A DNA stretch of 64,000 nucleotides from Chloroflexota bacterium (GTDB taxonomy: Bacteria; Chloroflexota; UBA11872; UBA12225). Below, piece by piece: positions 9,862 through 53,651 of the stretch. Under the pieces are notes generated by a model. The model was not told the origin of the DNA. It worked only from the letters and a program-made list of their open reading frames with translations, and did no database searches. Position numbers and translations under genes: made by a program. How positions within the stretch are numbered: the first letter of the stretch is position 1; each line of letters starts with the position of its first letter. Where the stretch lies: contig SHXX01000002.1 in NCBI GenBank assembly GCA_009693165.1, positions 17,423-81,422 on the forward strand. Reading direction: 5' to 3'.

Positions 9862-10557
9862 GTGACGGCCTCCTCACCGCCTGGCCCGGCATCCTCCCCC
9901 GTCTCCATTGAACTCGGGACATCGCACTATCCGCGTCTCGTCCGGTGGGGACACGCGTACCAGCGCGAGAGTGGCGTAAGCCTGTGGCATTCATATGTGC
10001 TCACCACATCGGACGGCCCGATCCTCATCGACCCCCTCATGCCGGACGGGCCTACGCTGGGCCAACTCGAGGGGATTGTGGAACAGATGGGTGGCGTGCC
10101 CGCGGCCACCATCCTCACCAATGACATGCACGAACGCGCGGCCTACGTGGCGCGCAACCAATGGGGCATCCCGATCTGGGCGCCCTCGGCCGGAGACGGG
10201 GAATACGAAGCGAAGCCGGACCGCCTGTACGGCGCGTCCGACCGGCTGCCAGGCGGACTGATCGCCATTCCAGTCCGGGCCGCGTTCATCGGCGACACAC
10301 TCCTGAAATGGAACGCTCCCGATGGCCGGGGTGTCCTCTTCAGTGGCGACGTCTTCATGGAGCGCGGCGACCACCTGATCATCCACGCACCCGGTGCCAA
10401 CCCTCGTGCTGCCACCTCGACCGAAGAGGTCGCGTCCGGCCTGCGAACCGTCCTCGCTCCCCACCTTGACACCATCGACCTCGTCTTCAGTGCGCATGGC
10501 AAGCCGTTCACTGGCGATGCGCGTGCCGAGATCCGACGTCTCATCGGCGCCGGCTGA
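9862..10557 (+). CDS. metallo-beta-lactamase-fold-like protein with degenerate metal motif
   Basis: SYVLTTSDGPILIDP ... ATILTNDMHERAAY ... GVLFSGDVF has MBL-like strand and loop spacing, but TNDMHER stands where HxHxDH is expected. GTG 9862 is preceded by GAAGGGAGA. The track ORF begins at GTG 9727. Confidence 0.45.
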   Translation: MTASSPPGPASSPVSIELGTSHYPRLVRWGHAYQRESGVSLWHSYVLTTSDGPILIDPLMPDGPTLGQLEGIVEQMGGVPAATILTNDMHERAAYVARNQWGIPIWAPSAGDGEYEAKPDRLYGASDRLPGGLIAIPVRAAFIGDTLLKWNAPDGRGVLFSGDVFMERGDHLIIHAPGANPRAATSTEEVASGLRTVLAPHLDTIDLVFSAHGKPFTGDARAEIRRLIGAG

Positions 10558-10757
10558 TCCCGTCACGCCTGGTTGTGCGGACCGAAGACCCGTCCGGACG
10601 ACCACGCTGCGGGATTGGCGATACACTCCGCCCGCCACCGGCCACACGGGTCGGGAGAGCAAACTGAAGGACGTGCTTGGGCCGTGCGTCATCCATGGAT
10701 CACCCGTCACCTGATGGCACATGGACCGGCGCCGGGCCTGCACGCGAGTGGAGAGAG

Positions 10758-11957
10758 ATGGCCAGATACCGCACTGCCGTGATTGCCTGCGGGACGATCG
10801 GACGCGTCCACGCGCGCGGCTGGCAAGATGTGCCAGACCACCCGGTCGCGATTGGAGCCTGCGCCGACACCCATCCCGATGCCCGTCGCGAATTCGGCGA
10901 GTTCTTCGGCATCGGCGCCGAACACCGATACGGTGACTACCGGGAGATGCTTGATGCGGAACGGCCGGACATCGTGGACGTCTGTTCATGGCATCGCCAA
11001 CACGCCGAGATGACCATCGCGGCAGCGGCACGCAAGCCCCGGGCGGTCATCTGCCAGAAGCCGATGGCGCTCTCCCTCGGTGAAGCGGACGCAATGCTTA
11101 CCGCCTGCGAACGAAACGGGGTGTTCCTGTTCATCGCGTTCCAGCGACCGCACCATGCCACGTGGCTCAAGGCACGAGAACTTATCCGCTCAGGTGTGAT
11201 CGGGCGCATCCAGCAGATCGCCACCGATGATGGCGGCAACATCCTGAACACCAACTCCCACAACATCCGGCTGGCCGGGTACCTGCTCGAAGAGGAACGC
11301 CCGCAGTGGGTCATGGGTGCGGTTGAACGCCTGACCGATGTCATGGAGCGAGGCATCCCCTGTGAAGACCGATGCCTCGGCGTCGTCGGGTACGAGAGCG
11401 GCGCAACCCTCCTGATCCAGGGTGAACTCACCCGGAGCCGCGGGAAAGTCGGTGAACCGGGCCGACGTCTCGGGCAGGGCGCCCGCGTCATCGGCACCGA
11501 CGGCATGATGGAGTTCTGGACCGGAAGACCCGCCGACAAGGACCTCAGGAGCGACGGCGACATGGCCCAGCCGGAGGGATCGTCCGCGAAGTACAACGAC
11601 GAGTTCGGTGTCGTTCGCTACATGAATGCGACCACCGGCGGGTGGGTGAACGTCGACGCCACATGGCATGACTGCTGGGCGCACCAGTGTCAGCAGGTCG
11701 TGGACGTCCTCGACGGGAAACTCGAGTATGACCACGCCATCAGCCATGCGGCACACGGTCGCGTCGTGACCGAAATCATGATGGGTCTGTTCGAGAGCGC
11801 CCGGAAGCGTCGTCGGATCGAATTGCCTCTGCTCACCAAACTGAACCCGCTCAGCCTGATGGTCTCCAACGGCGACTTGCCCGTGGAATGGCCCGGGGCG
11901 TATGAGCGCCGTTCACGCCTGGTCCGCGGTGAAGGAATGACCTGGCACGAGAACTGA
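10758..11957 (+). CDS. Gfo/Idh/MocA family oxidoreductase
   Basis: From the ATG at 10758: MARYRTAVIACGTIGRVHARGW ... YREMLDAERPDIVDVCSWHRQHAEMTIAAAARKPRAVICQKPMALSLGEADAML. This is an N-terminal Rossmann fold plus the EKP-like (QKP) motif. Confidence 0.85.
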   Translation: MARYRTAVIACGTIGRVHARGWQDVPDHPVAIGACADTHPDARREFGEFFGIGAEHRYGDYREMLDAERPDIVDVCSWHRQHAEMTIAAAARKPRAVICQKPMALSLGEADAMLTACERNGVFLFIAFQRPHHATWLKARELIRSGVIGRIQQIATDDGGNILNTNSHNIRLAGYLLEEERPQWVMGAVERLTDVMERGIPCEDRCLGVVGYESGATLLIQGELTRSRGKVGEPGRRLGQGARVIGTDGMMEFWTGRPADKDLRSDGDMAQPEGSSAKYNDEFGVVRYMNATTGGWVNVDATWHDCWAHQCQQVVDVLDGKLEYDHAISHAAHGRVVTEIMMGLFESARKRRRIELPLLTKLNPLSLMVSNGDLPVEWPGAYERRSRLVRGEGMTWHEN

Positions 11958-20551: not shown

Positions 20552-22927
20552 CTATCCAGTCACCCCGTGGTCACGAAGGACTTTCCAGACCTTCGAGGGC
20601 GTCATCGGAATGTCGATGTGCCGGACACCAAGGTGCCAAAGCGCATCCACAACCGCGTTCACAATCGCGGGAGGCGCACCGACCGTCGCAGACTCCCCAA
20701 CGCCCTTCGCACCAAATGGGTGATGCGGTGACGGAGTGATCGTCTTGTCGGTCTCCCAGTTCGGGGTCTCGACCGCAGTCGGCACTAGGTAATCAATGAA
20801 GCTTCCGCCAAGGCAGTTGCCCGCCTCGTCGTAGCTGATTTCCTCGTACAGCGATGGCGCGAGGCCCATCGACAGGCCACCATGGATCTGCCCGTCGACA
20901 ATCATGGGATTGATGATGTTCCCGCAGTCATCGACAGCCACGAACCGGCGCACGTGAACCTGCCCGGTGCCGGCGTCGATATCGACGACGCAGATGTAGC
21001 TGCCAAACGGGTAGGTCAGGTTTGGCGGGTCGTAATAGTGCGTGGCCTCAAGTCCCGCTTCCATGCCTTGCGGGTGGTTCGTGTACGCCGCGAAGGCAAT
21101 TTCCTGGATGGTCTTGAATGCCTCGGGGTTGCCCTTGACCGTGAACTTTCCGGGTTCCCATTCAAGGTCTTCCTCGGCAACTTCCATCAAGTAGGCCGCA
21201 ATCTTTCGGGCTTTTTCACGGATCTTGCGCGCAGCCAAGGCCGCAGCGGCACCCGAAGTCGGCGTCGACCGGCTTGCGTACGTGCCAAGCCCGTAAGGCG
21301 CGGTATCGGTGTCACCTTCCTCGACCTGGACGTGCGCCATTGGAATGCCCAGTTCCTGGGCAACGATCTGTGCGTAGGTCGTTTCGTGTCCCTGGCCCTG
21401 CGACTTCGTGCCAAACCGGGCAATCGCCTTGCCGGTCGGGTGCACTCGGATCTCGGCCGAGTCGAACATCTTGATCCCGAGAATGTCGAAGTCCTTGGAC
21501 GGACCCGCCCCAACAATTTCCGTGAAACTGCTGATGCCGATGCCCATGAACTCGCCACGGGCCCGCTTCTCAAGCTGTTCGCGACGCAGGTCGTCGTACC
21601 CGATGATGTCCATCGCCTTCTGCAAGGCGGCGTGATAGTCGCCAGAGTCGTATTCCCATCCGAGTACCGACTTGTAGGGGAACTGGTCCTTCTCGATGAA
21701 GTTCTTCATCCGCAATGCAGCCGGATCCATGCCAATCTGGTGCGCCATGATGTCCACCATGCGCTCGATCGCATGGACCGCCTCGGTCACGCGGAATGAA
21801 CAGCGGTACGCCACGCCTCCCGGCGGTTTGTTGGTATACGCACCATCGACTTCGACGTGCGCGGCCTGGAGGTCGTAGGAACCCGTACAGATGTGATAGA
21901 GACCGGCCGGGAACTTCGAGGGGTTCGCGGCTGCATCGGCGTAGCCATGGTCGGCAAGGGTCTTGAACCGCAGCGCGGTCAACTTGCCATCCTTCGTCGC
22001 GGCCAACTCTGCGGTGGTGTGGTAGTCCCGCGCGAATGAGTCGGCCTGAAGGTTTTCCATCCGGTCCTCAATCCACTTGACCGGCTTGCCGATCAGCACG
22101 GATGCGGCGACCGCAATGACGTATCCCGGGTAAACCGGCACCTTGCCACCGAACCCACCACCGATGTCAGGCGAAATGATCCGGATCTTCTCCTCGGACA
22201 ATCCGACGTGACCCGCCACGAGCGCAAACACGGTGCGGATTGCGTGCGGGGCCTGGGTGGTCATCCAGACCGTCAGTTTCCCCTCGGTCTTCTCGAATGA
22301 CGCCACGCAGCCACATGTCTCAATGGAGGCGACATGGATCCGAGGAATGTAGATGTCCTGCTTCACGACGACATCCGCGTCTGCGAACGCCTTGTCGGTG
22401 ACCGCCGCATCCCCGACTTCCCAGTGGAAGATGTGGTTGTCGGTCTTGCCAGGCTTGTCGGTTCTCAGCACCGGTGCATCCGGCAAGAGTGCCTTGAAGG
22501 GATCAACGACGACGGGAAGTTCCTCGTATTCCACATCAACCACCGCCGCGCCGTCCGCCGCGATGTACCGGTCAGTCGCAATGACGGCTGCAACTTCCTG
22601 GGCCTGATACATCACCTTGTCGACCGGAAGCACCATCTGCGTGTCCGACATCAGCGTCGGCATCCAGTGAAGGTTGTATGCCTCCAGATCCTTGCCGGTT
22701 ATGACCGCAAGTACTCCTGGAATTGCCAGTGCCTTTGACGCATCAATGCTCACGATCTTGGCATGCGCATACGGACTGCGCACAATGTCCATCCACAGCA
22801 TGCCGGGCAGGGTCACGTCTTCAACGTAGTTGCCCTTGCCCTGCAGGAAACGCGGGTCTTCCTTCCGCTTCATCGAGTGGCCCATGCCACCGATGGCGGA
22901 GGATGTCATCGGAATCGTCTGGGTCAT
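20552..22927 (-). CDS. coxL: aerobic carbon-monoxide dehydrogenase large (molybdopterin) subunit, form I
   Basis: From the ATG at 22927: MTQTIPMTSSAIGGMGHSMKRKEDPRFLQGKGNYVEDV. The form I active-site loop GGVAYRCSFRVTEA is present, along with typical xanthine-dehydrogenase-family blocks (GGGFGGK, GTYASRST). Confidence 0.92.
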   Translation of the reverse strand: MTQTIPMTSSAIGGMGHSMKRKEDPRFLQGKGNYVEDVTLPGMLWMDIVRSPYAHAKIVSIDASKALAIPGVLAVITGKDLEAYNLHWMPTLMSDTQMVLPVDKVMYQAQEVAAVIATDRYIAADGAAVVDVEYEELPVVVDPFKALLPDAPVLRTDKPGKTDNHIFHWEVGDAAVTDKAFADADVVVKQDIYIPRIHVASIETCGCVASFEKTEGKLTVWMTTQAPHAIRTVFALVAGHVGLSEEKIRIISPDIGGGFGGKVPVYPGYVIAVAASVLIGKPVKWIEDRMENLQADSFARDYHTTAELAATKDGKLTALRFKTLADHGYADAAANPSKFPAGLYHICTGSYDLQAAHVEVDGAYTNKPPGGVAYRCSFRVTEAVHAIERMVDIMAHQIGMDPAALRMKNFIEKDQFPYKSVLGWEYDSGDYHAALQKAMDIIGYDDLRREQLEKRARGEFMGIGISSFTEIVGAGPSKDFDILGIKMFDSAEIRVHPTGKAIARFGTKSQGQGHETTYAQIVAQELGIPMAHVQVEEGDTDTAPYGLGTYASRSTPTSGAAAALAARKIREKARKIAAYLMEVAEEDLEWEPGKFTVKGNPEAFKTIQEIAFAAYTNHPQGMEAGLEATHYYDPPNLTYPFGSYICVVDIDAGTGQVHVRRFVAVDDCGNIINPMIVDGQIHGGLSMGLAPSLYEEISYDEAGNCLGGSFIDYLVPTAVETPNWETDKTITPSPHHPFGAKGVGESATVGAPPAIVNAVVDALWHLGVRHIDIPMTPSKVWKVLRDHGVTG

Positions 22928-22928
22928 C

Positions 22929-23438
22929 TCAGTCACCTCCCTGCAAGACTGCCTCGGGGGCGGGCGTGGGATGCATCTTGCGTTGCGCGTACTGGATCGC
23001 CTTGACAATGTTCACGTAGCCGGTGCACCGGCACAGGTTTCCGGAGATTGCCTCGCGGATTTCGGTTTCGGTCGGTTCGTTGACCGTCCGAAGCAGCGCT
23101 GTCGCCGTGATCATCATGCCGGGCGTGCAGAAGCCGCACTGGAGGCCATGTTCTTCCCAAAACCCCTCCTGCACTGGATTCAGTGTCCCGCCGACTGCGA
23201 GACCTTCGACAGTCGTGAGTGACTTGCCCTCGGCCTGGACCGCAAACATGGTGCAGGACTTGACTGGTTCCCCATCAAGGTCGATCGTGCACGCACCACA
23301 GTGAGATGTTTCGCACCCAACGTGCGTGCCAGTCAGACCCAAGGTCTCACGGATGCAATGAACCAGAAGCTGCCGGCTTTCGGCCTGGACCGACTTCGCT
23401 TCGCCGTTGATAGTGAAGTTCACCGTTCGCATTGACAT
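22929..23438 (-). CDS. coxS: CO dehydrogenase small subunit, [2Fe-2S]-binding
   Basis: [23 protein letters not shown] (plant-type cluster) and CGFCTPGMM ... GNLCRCTGY (second cluster). Its stop lies 1 nt before the coxL ATG. Confidence 0.92.
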
Positions 23439-24331
23439 CAGTGGCTTCCTCCCCGGGCACGGGATACCGCCCGGCCAATCGCGCGCCCGGCCAGGACCCG
23501 GACCAGATCGCGCTTGTACTCCGCCGAACCGCGCAAGTCGGACTTCGGGTCACTCTGGTGAGCAGCAAGTCTCGACGCGTCAGCGATTGCCTGATCCGTG
23601 ATCCGGTGTCCAACCAGGGACGCCTCGGCACTCGATGCCCGCGCCGGAACATCCGTCACGTTCGTGAGCCCGATGCGTGCCGCGATACACGTGTCGTGTG
23701 CGTCAAGCGTGAGGTTCACGGCAACGGCGGCAATCGCGTAATCGCCAACTTTGCGCTCGAACTTGATGTACGCCCCGCCGTTACGGACACCCGGTGCCGG
23801 GATGCGGATCTCGGTCAGGATTTCATCCGGTTCAAGCGCCGACGCAAAGAAAGAGGGGAAAAACTCATCGATCGGGATAAGCCGGTCACCGTTCGGTCCA
23901 TGTGCGACGATCGTGGCACCCAGGGCCAGCATCGTCGCGGGATGATCGTTGGCCGGGTCCGCGTGGGCAAGGTTTCCACCAATGGTTGCCCGGTTGCGCA
24001 CGAGTGGATCGGCAATCACCCTCGCGGTCTCGAACAGGATCGGGTAGCCATGCTTCACCAGCGTTGACCGTTCCAACGCTGCCTCTCGCGTCATTGCGCC
24101 GATCCGGAGCTCACCGTGTTCCTCACGGATGTACTCCAGCCCTGACACCCCGTTGACGTCAATGATGAACGCCGGTTGCGCCAACCGAAGCTTCATGGCC
24201 GGGATGAGGCTCATCCCACCAGAAAGGATCTTCGCGTCAGATCCATGTTTGGCAAGCAAGCCAACCGTCTCTTCCAGTGAGTGCGCCACCACGTACTCGA
24301 ATGCTGCTGGTATCACTCCGAACCCTCCCAT
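23438..24331 (-). CDS. coxM: CO dehydrogenase medium subunit, FAD-binding
   Basis: [53 protein letters not shown] ... [18 protein letters not shown]. Start is either the ATG at 24331 or, more canonically, GTG 24316 (VIPAAFEY), which is preceded by GGGAGGG. The TGA overlaps the coxS ATG by 1 nt. The track ORF extends to 24460. Confidence 0.9.
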
Positions 24332-24533
24332 CCGGGTCGGCGCCTCAGGCCCGCCCGCCCGTCGTCGCGCACCTGCGCGCTCGGAGAACAAAGCCGGTGC
24401 CTCGCCAGTGTGCGGTATCGAAATCACCCTGCCGTCCGGCCACCGGACGTTTCCGCCCACTGCGCCCTGCGCTAGCTTGGGTGCAGACTATCCGCACTCA
24501 TGCCAATACGCAAGTGCATGTGAACACCCCGAC

Positions 24534-27958: not shown

Positions 27959-29539
27959 ATGCGTCGACCCGTAGGTATCGAAACTGAATACGGCCTGAAC
28001 TGCGAGGGGTTCTCCGCAACCAGTCCTGGGGCACCAACCGGGCCAACCGATGGCCCGCCCGGGGTTGACTTCGGTTACGAGTGCGCCAGCATCGTCCGTG
28101 CGGTGCCATTCCCCGGGGCGTTCCGCGGTTGGGATTACCGGGGTGAGGATCCGTACCAGGATCTCCGCGGCATGCGTGCCGACCAGCTTGCGCGCGATCC
28201 AAATGACCTTGACGGACCCGACGAGCGAAGCCGGAAACTCAGCCGGGATGAGCTGCTCGCCAACACGGTCCTTCTCAATGGGGCACGCTATTACAACGAC
28301 CACAACCATCCCGAATACTGCACCGAGGCGACCCCAGACCTCTTCGAACTCGTGGCCCAGGACAGGGCAGGCGAGCGGATCGTCCATGCCAGCGAGACGG
28401 CGCGGAACGAAGCACTAGCCCGGGAAGTGGGACCGGCGACGCGGGTTCGGCTTCTGAAGAACAACACCGACTATCACGGGCGTAGCTACGGCATGCACGA
28501 GAACTACCTCTGTGCGCGTTCGACGTCGCTCGACGCACTGGTCAGGGGGATGACCCCCCACCTCGTCACTCGCCAACTTTACGCCGGCGCCGGAAAGGTC
28601 GGCGTCGAGACCTCGGGCGCCCCTATCGCCCCCGGTTTCCAGATGAGCCAACGGGCCGACTTCTTCGAGGAACGGATCGGTATCAACACCACCGCGAAGC
28701 GCCCCATCTTCAACACACGTGACGAACCACACGCGAGCTCGACCCGGTATCGGCGGCTGCATTGCATCGCCGGTGACGCGAACCGCTCGGAGTGGGCAAC
28801 CGCAATGAAGGTCGGGACCACCGCACTGGTCCTTGACCTCATTGAGGATGGGTGGACAGCTGAGTTCGAAATTGCGGATCCGGTCAAGGCCATCAAGGAC
28901 ATATCCCGGGACACCACCATGACCGCAACCGTCCCGATGACCGCGGGACGTCCGATGACCGCAGTCGCTATTCAGCACTTGATCCTCCACGCGTGCCGTG
29001 CCTCGTTTGCCGGGCGTGATCCGGAAACCGATTGGGTGCTTTCGCAGTGGGCAGAGGCGCTTGATGCCCTCGGATCAGACCCGGAAAGACTCGCTACACG
29101 GGTCGACTGGATTATCAAGCGGTCACTCTTCGTCCAGATCGGAACAACTGGCGACCCGCGCACCTGGGGCGATGCCCGCCTTCGTCGATTGGACATGGCC
29201 TATCACATGATCGACCCGCGGGTCAGCCTCTTCGAAACCCTCCGCAAGCAGGGACGTGTCATCAATCTTGTTGATCAAGATCGTCTCGACACGTGCGCCC
29301 AGACGCCACCAGCGGGAACGCGAGGCGCCATCCGCGGCGCACTTCTGGCCCGGTTCGGACCCCAGATCCGGAAACTCGAGTGGGACTCGGTCACGTTTGA
29401 TGTGGGATCCAAGGAATGGCGCCTCGACCTCGAGGACATAACAGGTCCCGTCATCGACCGGGTCATCGAACTCATCGACCGCTCCCCCGATCTCTCAAGC
29501 CTCGTCGCTACCATGAAGGGAGGATCACGTGACGCCTGA
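27959..29539 (+). CDS. dop: Pup deamidase/depupylase-type member of the Pup-ligase family (Dop-like)
   Basis: MRRPVGIETEYG ... GWDYRGEDPYQDLRG ... LLNGARYYNDHNHPEY ... LLKNNTDYHGRSYGMHENYL ... LVTRQLYAGAGKVG ... RPIFNTRDEPHASSTRYRRLHCIAGDANRSEW. About 95 aa separate GIETEYG from NGARYY, and a WDY motif is present. Both match my recollection of the Dop-specific insertion. Confidence 0.85.
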   Translation: MRRPVGIETEYGLNCEGFSATSPGAPTGPTDGPPGVDFGYECASIVRAVPFPGAFRGWDYRGEDPYQDLRGMRADQLARDPNDLDGPDERSRKLSRDELLANTVLLNGARYYNDHNHPEYCTEATPDLFELVAQDRAGERIVHASETARNEALAREVGPATRVRLLKNNTDYHGRSYGMHENYLCARSTSLDALVRGMTPHLVTRQLYAGAGKVGVETSGAPIAPGFQMSQRADFFEERIGINTTAKRPIFNTRDEPHASSTRYRRLHCIAGDANRSEWATAMKVGTTALVLDLIEDGWTAEFEIADPVKAIKDISRDTTMTATVPMTAGRPMTAVAIQHLILHACRASFAGRDPETDWVLSQWAEALDALGSDPERLATRVDWIIKRSLFVQIGTTGDPRTWGDARLRRLDMAYHMIDPRVSLFETLRKQGRVINLVDQDRLDTCAQTPPAGTRGAIRGALLARFGPQIRKLEWDSVTFDVGSKEWRLDLEDITGPVIDRVIELIDRSPDLSSLVATMKGGSRDA

Positions 29540-29729
29540 CACCGTGATCGCGATTGCACCCGAAGCCCCAACCAAACCCGCCGAAACACCCACTGAAGCA
29601 CCATCACGCCCATCATCCGCGCCGGGCGAGACCGATACTGAAAAGTCGTCCGATACCGACCTTGACGACGAGATCCAGCGCATCATCCGGGAAATTCCCG
29701 ACCCGACCCCACAGCCAGGCGGAGAGTAG
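29529..29729 (+). CDS. pup: prokaryotic ubiquitin-like protein (Pup-like), C-terminal GGE
   Basis: 66-aa acidic, Pro/Thr/Glu-rich ORF: MTPDTVIAIAPEAPTKPAETPTEAPSRPSSAPGETDTEKSSDTDLDDEIQRIIREIPDPTPQPGGE. GTG start with GGGAGGA 5 nt upstream. It overlaps the dop 3' end by 11 nt, lies exactly between the two ligase-family paralogs, and ends GGE then TAG. Confidence 0.75.
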   Translation: MTPDTVIAIAPEAPTKPAETPTEAPSRPSSAPGETDTEKSSDTDLDDEIQRIIREIPDPTPQPGGE

Positions 29730-29802: not shown

Positions 29803-31356
29803 ATGGAAAATGCACTCTTTGGCACTGAAACCGAGTACGCAGCCGCCGGGAACATGAGCCCGACCGAGGTCGCCTACCGGATCAAGGATGCCATCTTCGG
29901 TTCCCGGAAGTACGGGCTGATCGAGCCTGCGCCTCGCGAATGGGGTGAGAGCCCCGGCAATGGTGGGTTCCTTTTCAATGGGGGCCGGATGTACCTCGAT
30001 TCCGGCCACCTTGAATACGCAACCCCGGAATGCCGGACGCTGGATGACCTGATCGCCGCCGAACATGCCGGGGACCGCATCCTTCTGTCGATGATTGCCG
30101 AACTCCAACTCAAGGGTGAGGCGTTCTTCATCAAGAACAACACCGACCACTTCGGCAACACCTATGGCTACCACGAGAACTACTGCATCCGGTCAAGTCC
30201 GCGAACTCGCGACTTCGTGGAAAGCGTCCTTCCTTTCCTGGTGACCCGCCAGATCTTTGCTGGTGCCGGCATGTACAAGCCAGCCTCGACCCGTCCTCGC
30301 GCATCCCGCTTCCCTGCCCTTCCGGGAACGGTGGAAGGGTCGCCGCCACCACCGTTCCAAATCAGTCAGCGGGCACCTTTCACGTCAGTGGACGTCAGTC
30401 ACCGCGTCCGGTTCGGGGGTCGGCCGATCCTGAACCTGCGCGATGAATCCCACGCCGGGCGGAGATACAGCCGTCTGCACAACATCATTGGTGACGCGAA
30501 CAGGTCCGAGTTCGCCACCAAACTCAAGATTGGGACGATGGCACTTGTCGCCCAACTTCTGGACGAGGGATGGACATCCGAGGTCGAGATCGAGCTTGAG
30601 GATCCGGTGGCGTCCCTGAAGAAGATCTCGGGCGAGCCAACTGGCACATGGATGGTCAAGCTCGCGAACGGCAGCGAGATGTCCGCGATCGATATCCAGC
30701 GCGTCTACCTCCACGAGGCAACCCGACGATATCTCGGTCGCGATGAGGACACCATCTGGGTCCTTCGCCAATGGGCGTCAGTGCTGAACACACTGGAGAC
30801 CGACCGCTTCCGCCTGGACGGCTACCTCGATTGGGTCACAAAGTTCCTCCAGTTGAAATCCTTTGCCGCAAAGGCAGCCCGCGGGTGGGAGGAACCAGAC
30901 CTCATCAAGCTGGATCTTGCGTACCACCACATCGACCCGTCGGTCAGCCTGTTCAACCTGCTGCAGCGCCAAGGGAAACTCCAGCCGATCGTTGCGCCGG
31001 AGCGCGCCGAAGCAATGATGGTCAATCCGCCCGCTGGATCGCGGGCCAACGCCCGTGGACGGATCGTGCAGGCGATGTCAACTGCTCGCGCCGACAGTGA
31101 CATCAACTGGGCACTCATTTCGCGTCGCCTAGGTGAGCGGGCCAGTTACGGAGACGAACGGACCATGGTGTACGAATACGTCGACACTTATCTCGATGTT
31201 CAGGGCGCCGATGCTTGGAAGCTGATCCCGTACGTGATCGACTGGGGCGCGATCGCCTACAAGAACCATATTCTGGAACTTGGCGACCCATTCAGTGAGT
31301 ACGCAGCCGAAGCCTCCGGGTATTCAGCGACCGTCCCCGACTGGGTCGGAGCCTGA
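29803..31356 (+). CDS. pafA: Pup--protein ligase-type member of the Pup-ligase family (PafA-like)
   Basis: MENALFGTETEYA ... FLFNGGRMYLDSGHLEYATPEC ... FIKNNTDHFGNTYGYHENYC ... LVTRQIFAGAGM ... RPILNLRDESHAGRRYSRLHNIIGDANRSEF. The short (~46 aa) spacing between GTETEY and NGGRMY is PafA-like. At 517 aa it is longer than the ~450 aa I recall for PafA. Confidence 0.85.
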   Translation: MENALFGTETEYAAAGNMSPTEVAYRIKDAIFGSRKYGLIEPAPREWGESPGNGGFLFNGGRMYLDSGHLEYATPECRTLDDLIAAEHAGDRILLSMIAELQLKGEAFFIKNNTDHFGNTYGYHENYCIRSSPRTRDFVESVLPFLVTRQIFAGAGMYKPASTRPRASRFPALPGTVEGSPPPPFQISQRAPFTSVDVSHRVRFGGRPILNLRDESHAGRRYSRLHNIIGDANRSEFATKLKIGTMALVAQLLDEGWTSEVEIELEDPVASLKKISGEPTGTWMVKLANGSEMSAIDIQRVYLHEATRRYLGRDEDTIWVLRQWASVLNTLETDRFRLDGYLDWVTKFLQLKSFAAKAARGWEEPDLIKLDLAYHHIDPSVSLFNLLQRQGKLQPIVAPERAEAMMVNPPAGSRANARGRIVQAMSTARADSDINWALISRRLGERASYGDERTMVYEYVDTYLDVQGADAWKLIPYVIDWGAIAYKNHILELGDPFSEYAAEASGYSATVPDWVGA

Positions 31357-51612: not shown

Positions 51613-53532
51613 TCACTCGCGACCGCCTGTCAGATCGGCGAACGCCCGCGATCCCGGCAACCGCAGGTCGCCATTGCGACGCGTGACCTTCTCTCGATCC
51701 AGATACTCAAGAAATGGCAGCACATATTTTCGACTCGTGCCGATCAGGTCGCGCGCCTCGGCAACGGTGATTTCCCCACGGACCCGGAAGTGCCGGCCGA
51801 CGCGTGTGACCATCTCCTCGAACGCATTCCTGTCGAAATACACGTCATCACTGACCTTCACCAGCGCACCGGTGACGACCAGTGCACCAACAACCTCTTC
51901 GAGAGAAGGCGCTCCGCGAACCTCCACGATCAGAGCAGCCAGTTCTGTCAACGTCGGCGGCGCCAACGGCACCCGCCCGATTGCCGTGGTGATAGCTTCG
52001 GAAACCAGAAGCGCAGCGCCAGTGAACCGAACCAGATGCCCAGCCGAACGGACACCCGTCCCGCCGTCAACCACGGCGTCAAGCGAAGCCATCCGCGTGA
52101 GCGCGCCTGCAAAGACCCGTGTGGGCAACCCGAGGCGGTTCTTGAGCTCCTCTTTCGGCATGAACGGCCTCAAGGGAAACTCGCTGTGGTAGGCATCGAG
52201 CGCCGTCACAAGCCGGTCACTGACCCGGTTCCATCCACCCCGTGTGTAGGTCAGTCCTCCAACCGGGACGATCTCACCTTGCGCCAGAAGCGCCTCAATC
52301 AACGGTGGGACAGTGGCGGGCATCAGTCCACATGCCGCGATCAGGTCGCCACTCGAAGCAGGTTCAATGCGGGCAAGGGTTCCAACCACCACATCTTCGG
52401 GAGACCCGTCGGCAAGCACCTCAAGGGCGGCGACCAAACCAGCCTGGTGCCGGCGGCGCACCGCGGGATGCGCGTCAATAATCCGCCCGCCGCCCAATGT
52501 CTCGCCGGGTGACAACGCACGGATGATGAAGTCATCATCGCGGGCAACCGCAACCGGGTGCGCAAGGCGCAGGTGGACCCAACCAGTCGCCCCCTCCTCG
52601 ATCCGGTCCCCCTCCAGGATATGGACGCGCGCGATCGTCTCCGACGTACCGGTATGAAACCCGACAAGCGCACCGTGTGGGAGCGGTCGTGACACCCCGG
52701 CAAGGATCCGGACCCGAACGTCGACGGCAAGCGTCGGACGCATGACCCCCGGTAGCGACACGACCGCACCCCGTCCAAGATCATCGATTGCGACACCCGC
52801 CAGGTTGATTGCAACCCGTCTTCCTGGACGAGCAACACCCACCTTGGTCCGATGGCTTTGGAGACCACGGGCACGGGTCCGAAGCCCATCCGGAAGCACT
52901 TCAAGCTCCTGTCCAACTTCAAGGCTGCCATCGCGGAGTGTCCCAGTCACGATCGTGCCAAAACCCGCCAAGGAGAACACCCGGTCGACCGGCATCCGGG
53001 GACGACCAAGGTCGCGACGCACTGGCGCGTCATCGAGTACGGCCACCAGCGCGGTCACGAGTTCCGGCAGGCCGCTGCCCGCCAACGCCGACACCGGCAC
53101 GATTGACGCACCCGACAGCGACGTCCCGCGCAGTGTCTCGCGCACCTCCTCCGCGACGAAAGCCCGCCATTCATCGTCCACCAAGTCTGCCTTTGTCAGC
53201 GCGACGACGCCGTGCTTCACCCCGATCAAGTCCAGAATGTCGAGGTGTTCGCGGGTCTGGGGCATGATGCCCTCATCGGCAGCGATGACGAGCAGCGCCG
53301 CATCTATTCCACCCACCCCAGCCAGCATGTTCTTGATGAACCGTTCGTGCCCGGGGACGTCGACGATGCTGATCTCACGACCGTCAGGTAGCCGCAACCA
53401 GGCAAACCCGAGGTCGATCGTCATGCCACGCGCCTTCTCTTCGCGCAGGCGGTCTGGATCTATCCCGGTCAGTGTCTCGATGAGTGTCGATTTACCGTGG
53501 TCAACGTGACCGGCAGTCCCGATCGTAAGCAT
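51613..53532 (-). CDS. selB: selenocysteine-specific translation elongation factor
   Basis: From the ATG at 53532: MLTIGTAGHVDHGKSTLIETLTG ... DVPGHERFIKNM ... ALTKADL (G1, G3, G4), EF-Tu-like domains II and III, then a long winged-helix C-terminus ending ITVAEARDLIGTSRKYVLPFLEYLDREKVTRR. Confidence 0.9.
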   Translation of the reverse strand: MLTIGTAGHVDHGKSTLIETLTGIDPDRLREEKARGMTIDLGFAWLRLPDGREISIVDVPGHERFIKNMLAGVGGIDAALLVIAADEGIMPQTREHLDILDLIGVKHGVVALTKADLVDDEWRAFVAEEVRETLRGTSLSGASIVPVSALAGSGLPELVTALVAVLDDAPVRRDLGRPRMPVDRVFSLAGFGTIVTGTLRDGSLEVGQELEVLPDGLRTRARGLQSHRTKVGVARPGRRVAINLAGVAIDDLGRGAVVSLPGVMRPTLAVDVRVRILAGVSRPLPHGALVGFHTGTSETIARVHILEGDRIEEGATGWVHLRLAHPVAVARDDDFIIRALSPGETLGGGRIIDAHPAVRRRHQAGLVAALEVLADGSPEDVVVGTLARIEPASSGDLIAACGLMPATVPPLIEALLAQGEIVPVGGLTYTRGGWNRVSDRLVTALDAYHSEFPLRPFMPKEELKNRLGLPTRVFAGALTRMASLDAVVDGGTGVRSAGHLVRFTGAALLVSEAITTAIGRVPLAPPTLTELAALIVEVRGAPSLEEVVGALVVTGALVKVSDDVYFDRNAFEEMVTRVGRHFRVRGEITVAEARDLIGTSRKYVLPFLEYLDREKVTRRNGDLRLPGSRAFADLTGGRE

Positions 53533-53651
53533 GCCATTCCTCGCGATTGCAGCGGGCCTGCCGGTGTAGGGGAACCAGATCGGACGCCAGTGGGTAGCCA
53601 ACCCCAGAATACCGGGTCACGCGAGGAAACTGGGCACCCCACTGTGGTCCA

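Follow-up and report, generated by a model that had tools for sequence, protein, structure and literature searches.

The window analysed here, a 64-kb stretch of a contig from a Chloroflexota bacterium (SHXX01000002.1, assembly GCA_009693165.1), contains three consecutive genes on the forward strand that resemble a bacterial protein-tagging cassette. The first (27959–29539) encodes a Dop orthologue of 526 aa, predicted to be a deamidase and tag-removing enzyme; the second (29529–29729, stop codon included) encodes a Pup-like small protein of 66 aa, hereafter the tag; and the third (29803–31356) encodes a PafA orthologue of 517 aa, the predicted tag ligase. The enzymes were identified by family scores, a tree and motifs, and the tag gene by its open reading frame (ORF), its homologues and synteny. 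The order Dop-like, tag, PafA-like on one strand was found in the window and in 59 of 59 related loci. In public records the tag is a hypothetical protein or its gene is left uncalled; the enzymes are recorded as 'peptidase', 'hypothetical protein', 'PafA2 family protein', 'Pup amidohydrolase' or 'proteasome accessory factor A', and the ligase is often 'hypothetical'. Curated libraries hold only two families of bacterial ligatable disordered tags, Pup and UBact, and a third would matter, if true. Our best reading is that the Chloroflexota tag represents such a third sequence family of Pup-like modifiers, conserved but hitherto unannotated and encoded in a minimal dop-tag-pafA cassette.

The tag ORF starts with a GTG codon that overlaps the stop of the upstream dop-like gene by 11 nt and is preceded, at a distance of 5 nt, by the Shine-Dalgarno sequence GGGAGG (29518–29523, forward strand), as read directly from the DNA. 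In the related loci the start codon of the tag gene usually falls only a few bases from the dop-like stop. Consensus promoter and terminator scans of the 27–32 kb region gave no signal above background. The encoded protein, MTPDTVIAIAPEAPTKPAETPTEAPSRPSSAPGETDTEKSSDTDLDDEIQRIIREIPDPTPQPGGE, is acidic (pI 4.06; 15 Asp and Glu residues against 5 Lys and Arg), includes 12 prolines and ends in ...DLDDEIQRIIREIPDPTPQPGGE. Its DLDDEI motif occupies residues 44–49 and starts 23 residues from the end. A first-pass annotation of this DNA had described an acidic, Pup-like ORF at exactly these positions, lying between dop and pafA homologues, with DLDDEI about 23 residues from the C-terminus and a GGE end, and all of this is borne out. 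Its count of five prolines in the last 13 residues (REIPDPTPQPGGE) has to be corrected to four, and residues 57–63, which precede the terminal Gly-Gly-Glu, contain four prolines in seven positions.

A protein search identified about 130 homologous clusters at 90% identity, none of which carries a Pfam domain. Judging by organism names, all belong to metagenome-assembled genomes (MAGs) of Chloroflexi/Chloroflexota, save for bins that are apparently mislabelled. The sequence varies in the N-terminal half, where Pro, Ala, Glu and Thr abound. All members of the clusters end in ...RIIREIPDPTPQPGG[E/Q], and these last 16 residues are nearly invariant while their codons vary synonymously. When GTDB, with one genome per species, was searched with the peptide pattern PDP[TR]PQPGG, 53 loci were confirmed, all 53 in Chloroflexota. 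The tag family occurs in part of the Chloroflexota only.

The last 22 codons of these genes exist in 53 distinct nucleotide versions, among which R-16, I-15, R-13, E-12 and P-10 to G-2 are invariant, each with two to four synonymous codons; nine of the invariant tail residues are fixed by the search pattern itself, and RIIRE lies outside it. The terminal residue is Glu in 42 of the 53 versions (GGE) and Gln in 11 (GGQ). The only substitutions seen in independent protein and profile searches, all of them rare, were T60 to K, R or A, P61 to A and D58 to G. The tail is fixed while the flanking enzymes diverge to 44–50% identity across lineages. An Rfam scan of the 27–32 kb region revealed no family above background in the tag region. 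As the invariant residues are kept through synonymous codon changes and no Rfam family accounts for them, selection acts on the protein, and the reading of the region as an RNA element was rejected on the codon evidence. The first-pass annotation had proposed that orthologous ORFs be collected to see whether the Pro-rich tail is kept, and had named absence of the ORF from syntenic loci of relatives as a ground for giving up the idea. The tail is conserved, the dop-tag-pafA order recurs in 59 other loci, and with about 130 clusters that objection clearly fails.

A few organism labels conflict with the proteins found under them. One locus labelled Thermoflexus hugenholtzii JAD2 (L010) matches the window proteins at 94–95%, a label that conflicts with its Chloroflexota relatives, and a second locus labelled Thermoflexus hugenholtzii (L012) is more distant (tag 67%). 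P0001 and several cluster members are labelled Proteobacteria and match the window proteins at 90% or more, again in conflict with the label. All of these are probably mislabelled or mis-binned MAGs.

Both enzymes match the Pup_ligase family PF03136 far above its gathering cut-off of 25, with 466 bits for the upstream and 364 bits for the downstream protein. The best NCBIfam model for the upstream enzyme is Dop, TIGR03688 (417 bits; the equivalog cut-off is 492), and its best PDB matches are the Dop structures 5lrt and 4b0r (about 333 bits; PafA, 228), with an alignment that spans the Dop-loop region. Its sequence includes all of the motifs GIETEY, NGARYYND, HPEY, KNNTD...HENY, RPIFNTRDEPH and RLHCIAGDAN. 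The downstream enzyme scores 283 bits with the PafA model TIGR03686 (cut-off 551) and 275 bits with the Dop model, both far below the cut-offs, and contains GTETEY, NGGRMYLD, HLEY, KNNTD...HENY, RPILNLRDESH and RLHNIIGDAN. The spacing between the glutamate of the N-terminal GxExE motif and the catalytic Asp is 106 residues in the upstream enzyme of the window and 91–106 among upstream enzymes, compared with 87–92 in Dop references; it is 57 in the downstream enzyme, which has no Dop loop, and 48–62 in PafA references.

A neighbour-joining (NJ) tree was built from 12 Chloroflexota enzyme pairs, three Dop references and two PafA references. The reference sampling is thin; upstream enzymes plus Dop were split from downstream enzymes plus PafA with a bootstrap of 96/100. 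Each Chloroflexota enzyme clade had a bootstrap of 100, and the Chloroflexota ligase clade joined the PafA of a UBact system (99/100). On the tree, the loop spacing and the motifs, the upstream enzyme is best read as a Dop orthologue and the downstream enzyme as a PafA orthologue, both with intact catalytic motifs. Together, the conserved dop-tag-pafA synteny, the GG[E/Q] terminus and the intact catalytic motifs support the identification of the small protein as a Pup-like tag.

A Pro/Arg/Ser-rich loop lies at residues ~158–186 of the window ligase (30274–30360), between the AGAGM and (F/Y)xxSQRA motifs; it ranges from ~10 to ~50 residues across lineages, and the Dop and PafA references have ~11–13 residues there. 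In one lineage (H), the ligase bears an extra acidic, D/E/P-rich C-terminal extension of ~60–80 residues (L053, 10102–11841; L054, 731–2428). In one MAG, the ligase gene is in two pieces of 383 aa and ~114 aa (L002, 10187–11679) while the near-identical L003 has it intact with 497 aa; the split may reflect a frameshift, a misassembly or decay into a pseudogene.

With an alignment of 47 family sequences, AlphaFold2 predicted a single helix at residues 42–53 of the tag and coil elsewhere (mean pLDDT 67, pTM 0.17). The amphipathic helix region, DTDLDDEIQRIIREI, is placed at residues 42–56 (29652–29696, forward strand). One face of the helix reads as hydrophobic (L45, I49, I52, I53 and I56), and R51, I52 and E55 are invariant in the 47 sequences. 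It is followed by the conserved proline-rich tail PDPTPQPGGE, residues 57–66 (29697–29726, forward strand), which ends in the predicted ligation residue Glu66. In place of the two-helix C-terminal region of the Pup type, the model has one helix and then coil from residue 54 to the end; as far as its residues tell, the stretch that forms the second helix of Pup cannot be helical in the Chloroflexota tag. The four tail prolines and the single predicted helix suggest a docking mode that may differ from that of Pup. Within the variable, Pro/Ala/Glu/Thr-rich disordered half a short motif, E-A-P-T-K-P, is kept at residues 12–17 (29562–29579, forward strand). Its consensus in the 47 sequences is E-[AT]-P-x-K-P, with P14 invariant and P17 present in at least 90%, and it may serve as a receptor-binding or initiation site.

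The likeness to Pup (PF05639/TIGR03687, Actinobacteria) goes beyond gene order. Both proteins are small, acidic and disordered and end in GG[E/Q]; both genes lie directly downstream of dop, with adjacent dop and pafA homologues whose catalytic motifs are intact; and each protein has, some 20 residues before its end, an amphipathic helix capped by acidic residues at its N-terminus (DLDDEI in the Chloroflexota tag, DDLLDEI in Pup). However, the second-helix segment of Pup, NAEDFVRAYVQK, is replaced by PDPTPQP, and the last hydrophobic helix residue is 10 residues from the terminus, versus 17 in M. tuberculosis Pup. The Chloroflexota tag also differs from Pup in escaping the Pup models, in having no nearby prcBA or mpa and in its host phylum. 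In the one mycobacterial Pup locus that we fetched, the arrangement is dop-pup-prcB-prcA...pafA.

As the first-pass annotation had suggested, the tag was compared with hidden Markov models (HMMs) of both known families. None of the 47 family members matched PF05639, TIGR03687, PF20513 or NF033388 at E ≤ 10, and the window ORF had no Pup match at E ≤ 1 in Pfam or NCBIfam. As controls, the M. tuberculosis and C. glutamicum Pup proteins matched PF05639/TIGR03687 at 3e-22 and 4e-21, and a UBact sequence matched PF20513/NF033388 at 6e-24 and 2e-22. A search of 1.84 billion representative proteins with the tag family profile and no word filter returned 26 matches, 24 of which are evident tag family members (the exceptions are P0373 and P0374), and reached neither the Pup nor the UBact family. 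In profile–profile comparison with hhalign, the tag family was at noise level against both UBact (E=0.07, 11 columns) and Pup (E=0.17), and local HMM cross-searches with filters off again gave noise, with 8.3 bits as the best score of the UBact HMM.

UBact and Pup, compared with each other by hhalign, were likewise at noise level (E=0.027), so that profile–profile comparison cannot settle the homology of such short tags. With the three families mutually undetectable under standard statistics, the Chloroflexota tag is as separate from Pup and UBact as those two are from each other. It is distinct in sequence from both and, taken by analogy to work like them, falls outside the sequence models of both. 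The first-pass annotation had called it 'an intermediate or a new subtype': a new subtype fits the lack of Pup and UBact HMM matches in 47 members, and the results do not establish it as an intermediate of the two families. A literature search on UBact, pupylation and PafA in Chloroflexi/Chloroflexota, which did not extend to the original UBact paper, found no description of this tag family.

Searches by tblastn with Mpa, PrcA and PrcB queries taken from UBact and Pup loci gave no match, either in the window or in the 59 related loci with 10 kb on each side, whereas Dop and PafA from the same sources matched every Chloroflexota locus twice. Pfam scans of ten large window ORFs found no AAA unfoldase. 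Fuchs et al. (2017, PMC5666114) list actinobacteria, nitrospirae, armatimonadetes and verrucomicrobia as the bacteria with proteasomes and write that chloroflexi 'do not contain a proteasome'. Given a cassette unlinked to any Mpa or proteasome gene in these searches, and a phylum that is reportedly proteasome-less, we regard the action of the tag as most likely independent of a proteasome.

The relation to UBact (PF20513/NF033388; Nitrospirota, Verrucomicrobiota and others) is the point on which another reading of the tag turns, namely that it is a very divergent member of the UBact (or Pup) family that shares ancestry and docking mode with it, has its proteasome or Mpa receptor encoded elsewhere and represents no new type. 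The two tags do share features. Both occur outside Actinobacteria, with E as well as Q termini, both have conserved prolines in the disordered N-terminal half, and in both a basic helix is followed by P-D (KRMRKVDPD in UBact, KRIIREIPDP in the Chloroflexota tag). An ungapped match between the consensus sequences, EPDLDEEIKRIIREIPD and KPDTDDLLKRMRKVDPD, has 7 of 17 positions identical (K-R...P-D) and a shuffle p of ~0.001, compared with ~0.0015 for UBact against Pup and ~0.06 for the Chloroflexota tag against Pup; as the consensus strings were composed by hand, the match is a lead and no proof. The likeness to UBact that the first-pass annotation had noticed appears to be real but weak, and at noise by profile methods.

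In the small tree, moreover, the Chloroflexota ligase has the PafA of a UBact system as its closest reference, with the bootstrap of 99/100 given above, and since the accepted relatives UBact and Pup are themselves at noise in hhalign, the failed profile tests do not exclude common descent. Against membership stands the result that none of the four Pup and UBact models matches any of the 47 sequences. The invariant VDP.QA.RYRQRTG[E/Q] of UBact does not occur in the Chloroflexota tag, and only its P-D pair is common to both; in place of the UBact tail QA.RYRQRTG[E/Q], with its single Gly, the Chloroflexota tag has PTPQPGG[E/Q]. This PTPQPGG segment is three residues shorter than the UBact tail, accounts for three of the four prolines in the tail and ends in the double glycine of Pup. 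Both UBact loci that we fetched have mpa-dop-UBact-prcB(-prcA-pafA) clusters, as opposed to dop-tag-pafA alone in Chloroflexota, where mpa and prcBA are adjacent in none of the 59 loci, and the phylum is the one reported to be proteasome-less (PMC5666114). On this balance we consider it unlikely that the tag is simply a divergent UBact or Pup.

Tagging without a proteasome has precedents. Pupylation in Corynebacterium and Bifidobacterium is proteasome-less, with a dop-pup-pafA locus that includes ARC/Mpa and with no 20S core. Like these systems, the Chloroflexota cassette combines tag, ligase and depupylase and has no genes for the proteasome core, and the GGE end of its tag would make deamidation unnecessary; unlike them, it has no Mpa within 10 kb, and its tag differs from the canonical Pup that they use alongside the Mpa/ARC of their loci. 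Iyer, Burroughs and Aravind (2008, PMC2588565) described Pup/PafA pairs of Plesiocystis and Rhodopirellula that are unlinked to proteasome genes. These too are found outside Actinobacteria, but an insertion with four transmembrane segments interrupts their ligases, which are linked to the gene of a membrane protein, whereas the Chloroflexota ligase has only the short variable Pro/Arg/Ser-rich loop at a comparable position and no conserved neighbour.

A self-contained cassette without conserved partner genes would also suit a different biochemistry, in which the small protein is the precursor or substrate peptide of two enzymes of the carboxylate-amine-ligase fold, yielding a ribosomal peptide product or a conjugate with a small-molecule amine. 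The invariant part of the tag is very short and proline-rich, like some peptide natural-product cores, and neither enzyme reaches the equivalog cut-off of the Dop or PafA model. However, both enzymes are specific Dop and PafA orthologues with all catalytic motifs, the alternation of E and Q at the terminus exactly mirrors the deamidation logic of Pup, and no transporter, protease or tailoring gene is conserved beside the cassette in the 8 lineages compared, which makes this reading improbable. That the ORF is spurious or non-functional, lying between two paralogous enzyme genes, would fit its lack of database annotation and is refuted to near certainty by the ~130 clusters and 53 species-level genomes, the synteny in 59 loci, the strictly synonymous variation at the invariant positions R-16 to G-2 in 53 nucleotide versions and the strong Shine-Dalgarno sequence, with no Rfam element to explain the conservation.

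We therefore return to the reading with which we opened and think it probable that the tag is the modifier of a three-gene dop-tag-pafA protein-tagging cassette and belongs to a third Pup-like family, built of one helix and a proline tail. Several results weigh against it. The downstream enzyme scores about equally with the Dop and PafA models, so its assignment as a ligase depends on the absence of a Dop loop and on the small NJ tree, which includes only two references for PafA. There is no profile-level homology to Pup or UBact, and the functional assignment hence derives from gene context and the GG[E/Q] end. An AlphaFold2 model of the ligase fused to the tag, made with tag homologues only, reached pLDDT 46 and pTM 0.27 and is unusable for docking; the tag helix appears in it at residues 45–53. 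Finally, the search for Mpa and the proteasome spans the window and the 10-kb flanks, and genes elsewhere in the genome could have escaped it.

If the three-gene cassette works as its relatives do, the following scheme may be proposed. The tag would be a disordered, acidic protein whose functional part is the last ~25 residues, comprising the helix L45–I56, the rigid PDPTPQPGG and the final Glu. If Pup is the guide, deamidation of the GGQ forms, which make up about one fifth of the relatives, would fall to the Dop orthologue, as would removal of the tag from its targets. The PafA orthologue would phosphorylate the γ-carboxylate of the terminal Glu with ATP and join the tag to target lysines; ligation through the terminal Glu is probable on the same grounds. 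The tag helix may dock in the enzyme groove that holds helix 1 of Pup, and the proline-rich tail, replacing helix 2, could lead into the active site as a rigid, extended linker. Delivery of tagged proteins to a proteasome would presumably not occur, and the modification might serve as a reversible mark in regulation or be read as a signal by another receptor. More tentatively, and with somewhat less than even confidence, we suggest a Chloroflexota system free of both proteasome and Mpa, in which a third modifier family docks by a helix and a polyproline-type tail in a mode unlike the known Pup-PafA and Pup-Dop complexes, and which either has an unknown receptor or makes a purely reversible mark.

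A conserved fourth gene was sought by clustering the neighbouring ORFs of 8 lineages. The two enzyme genes were the only ones common to 8/8, and outside these the gene neighbourhood changes from lineage to lineage. Lineages E, G and H have a clpC-radA-ispD-ispF-cysS block on the opposite strand, no more than 10 kb from the cassette (L001, 12156–19654, and equivalents), and ClpC is the sole AAA+ unfoldase seen near any cassette. We rejected the clpC-radA-ispDF cluster as a dedicated partner on the grounds that it is found in 3/8 lineages, on the opposite strand, and is a common housekeeping block. The spacer between tag and ligase genes measures 235–673 nt in lineage E and 6–100 nt in the other lineages. 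Lineage E spacers (L001, 10225–10461; L027, L033 and L037, ~10117–10790) contain short palindromic repeats of ~30–55 bp, which different genomes have in common in either orientation and which resemble REP or MITE elements. In one genome (L020, 10214–10771), two small ORFs between the tag and ligase genes, by eye a putative HicA/HicB toxin-antitoxin pair, extend the spacer from ~100 to 734 nt.

The Pfam scans of ten large window ORFs identified ordinary chromosomal genes, such as those for topoisomerase I, HisRS, SelB and glycosidases. The selenocysteine-specific elongation factor SelB is encoded at 51616–53601 on the reverse strand, and thus the organism probably makes selenoproteins. Upstream of the cassette, at 20552–24460, lies a molybdenum hydroxylase set (large, 2Fe-2S and FAD subunits), with an XdhC-like gene further on; this set stands beside the cassette only in the two closest lineages.

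For annotation, the finding would give a name to a tag now recorded as 'hypothetical' or uncalled and to a ligase that is often 'hypothetical'. If the tag is ligated, trypsin would leave the remnant EIPDPTPQPGGE on the modified lysine, with a mass shift of ~+1217.56 Da as calculated from standard residue masses. PafA-Pup pairs are in use for proximity labelling, and a tag that is short and distinct in sequence could form an orthogonal labelling pair with its own ligase. The tag would also amount to a natural experiment in tag recognition, with the helix kept, the second helix exchanged for a rigid proline tail and 16 residues frozen while the enzymes fall below 50% identity, so that the docking rules of PafA and Dop become directly testable. 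If our reading is true, Pup-type tagging extends to a large environmental phylum of freshwater, soil and sponge-associated bacteria that is reportedly proteasome-less, and it would sharpen the question of what role pupylation-like tagging plays without a proteasome.

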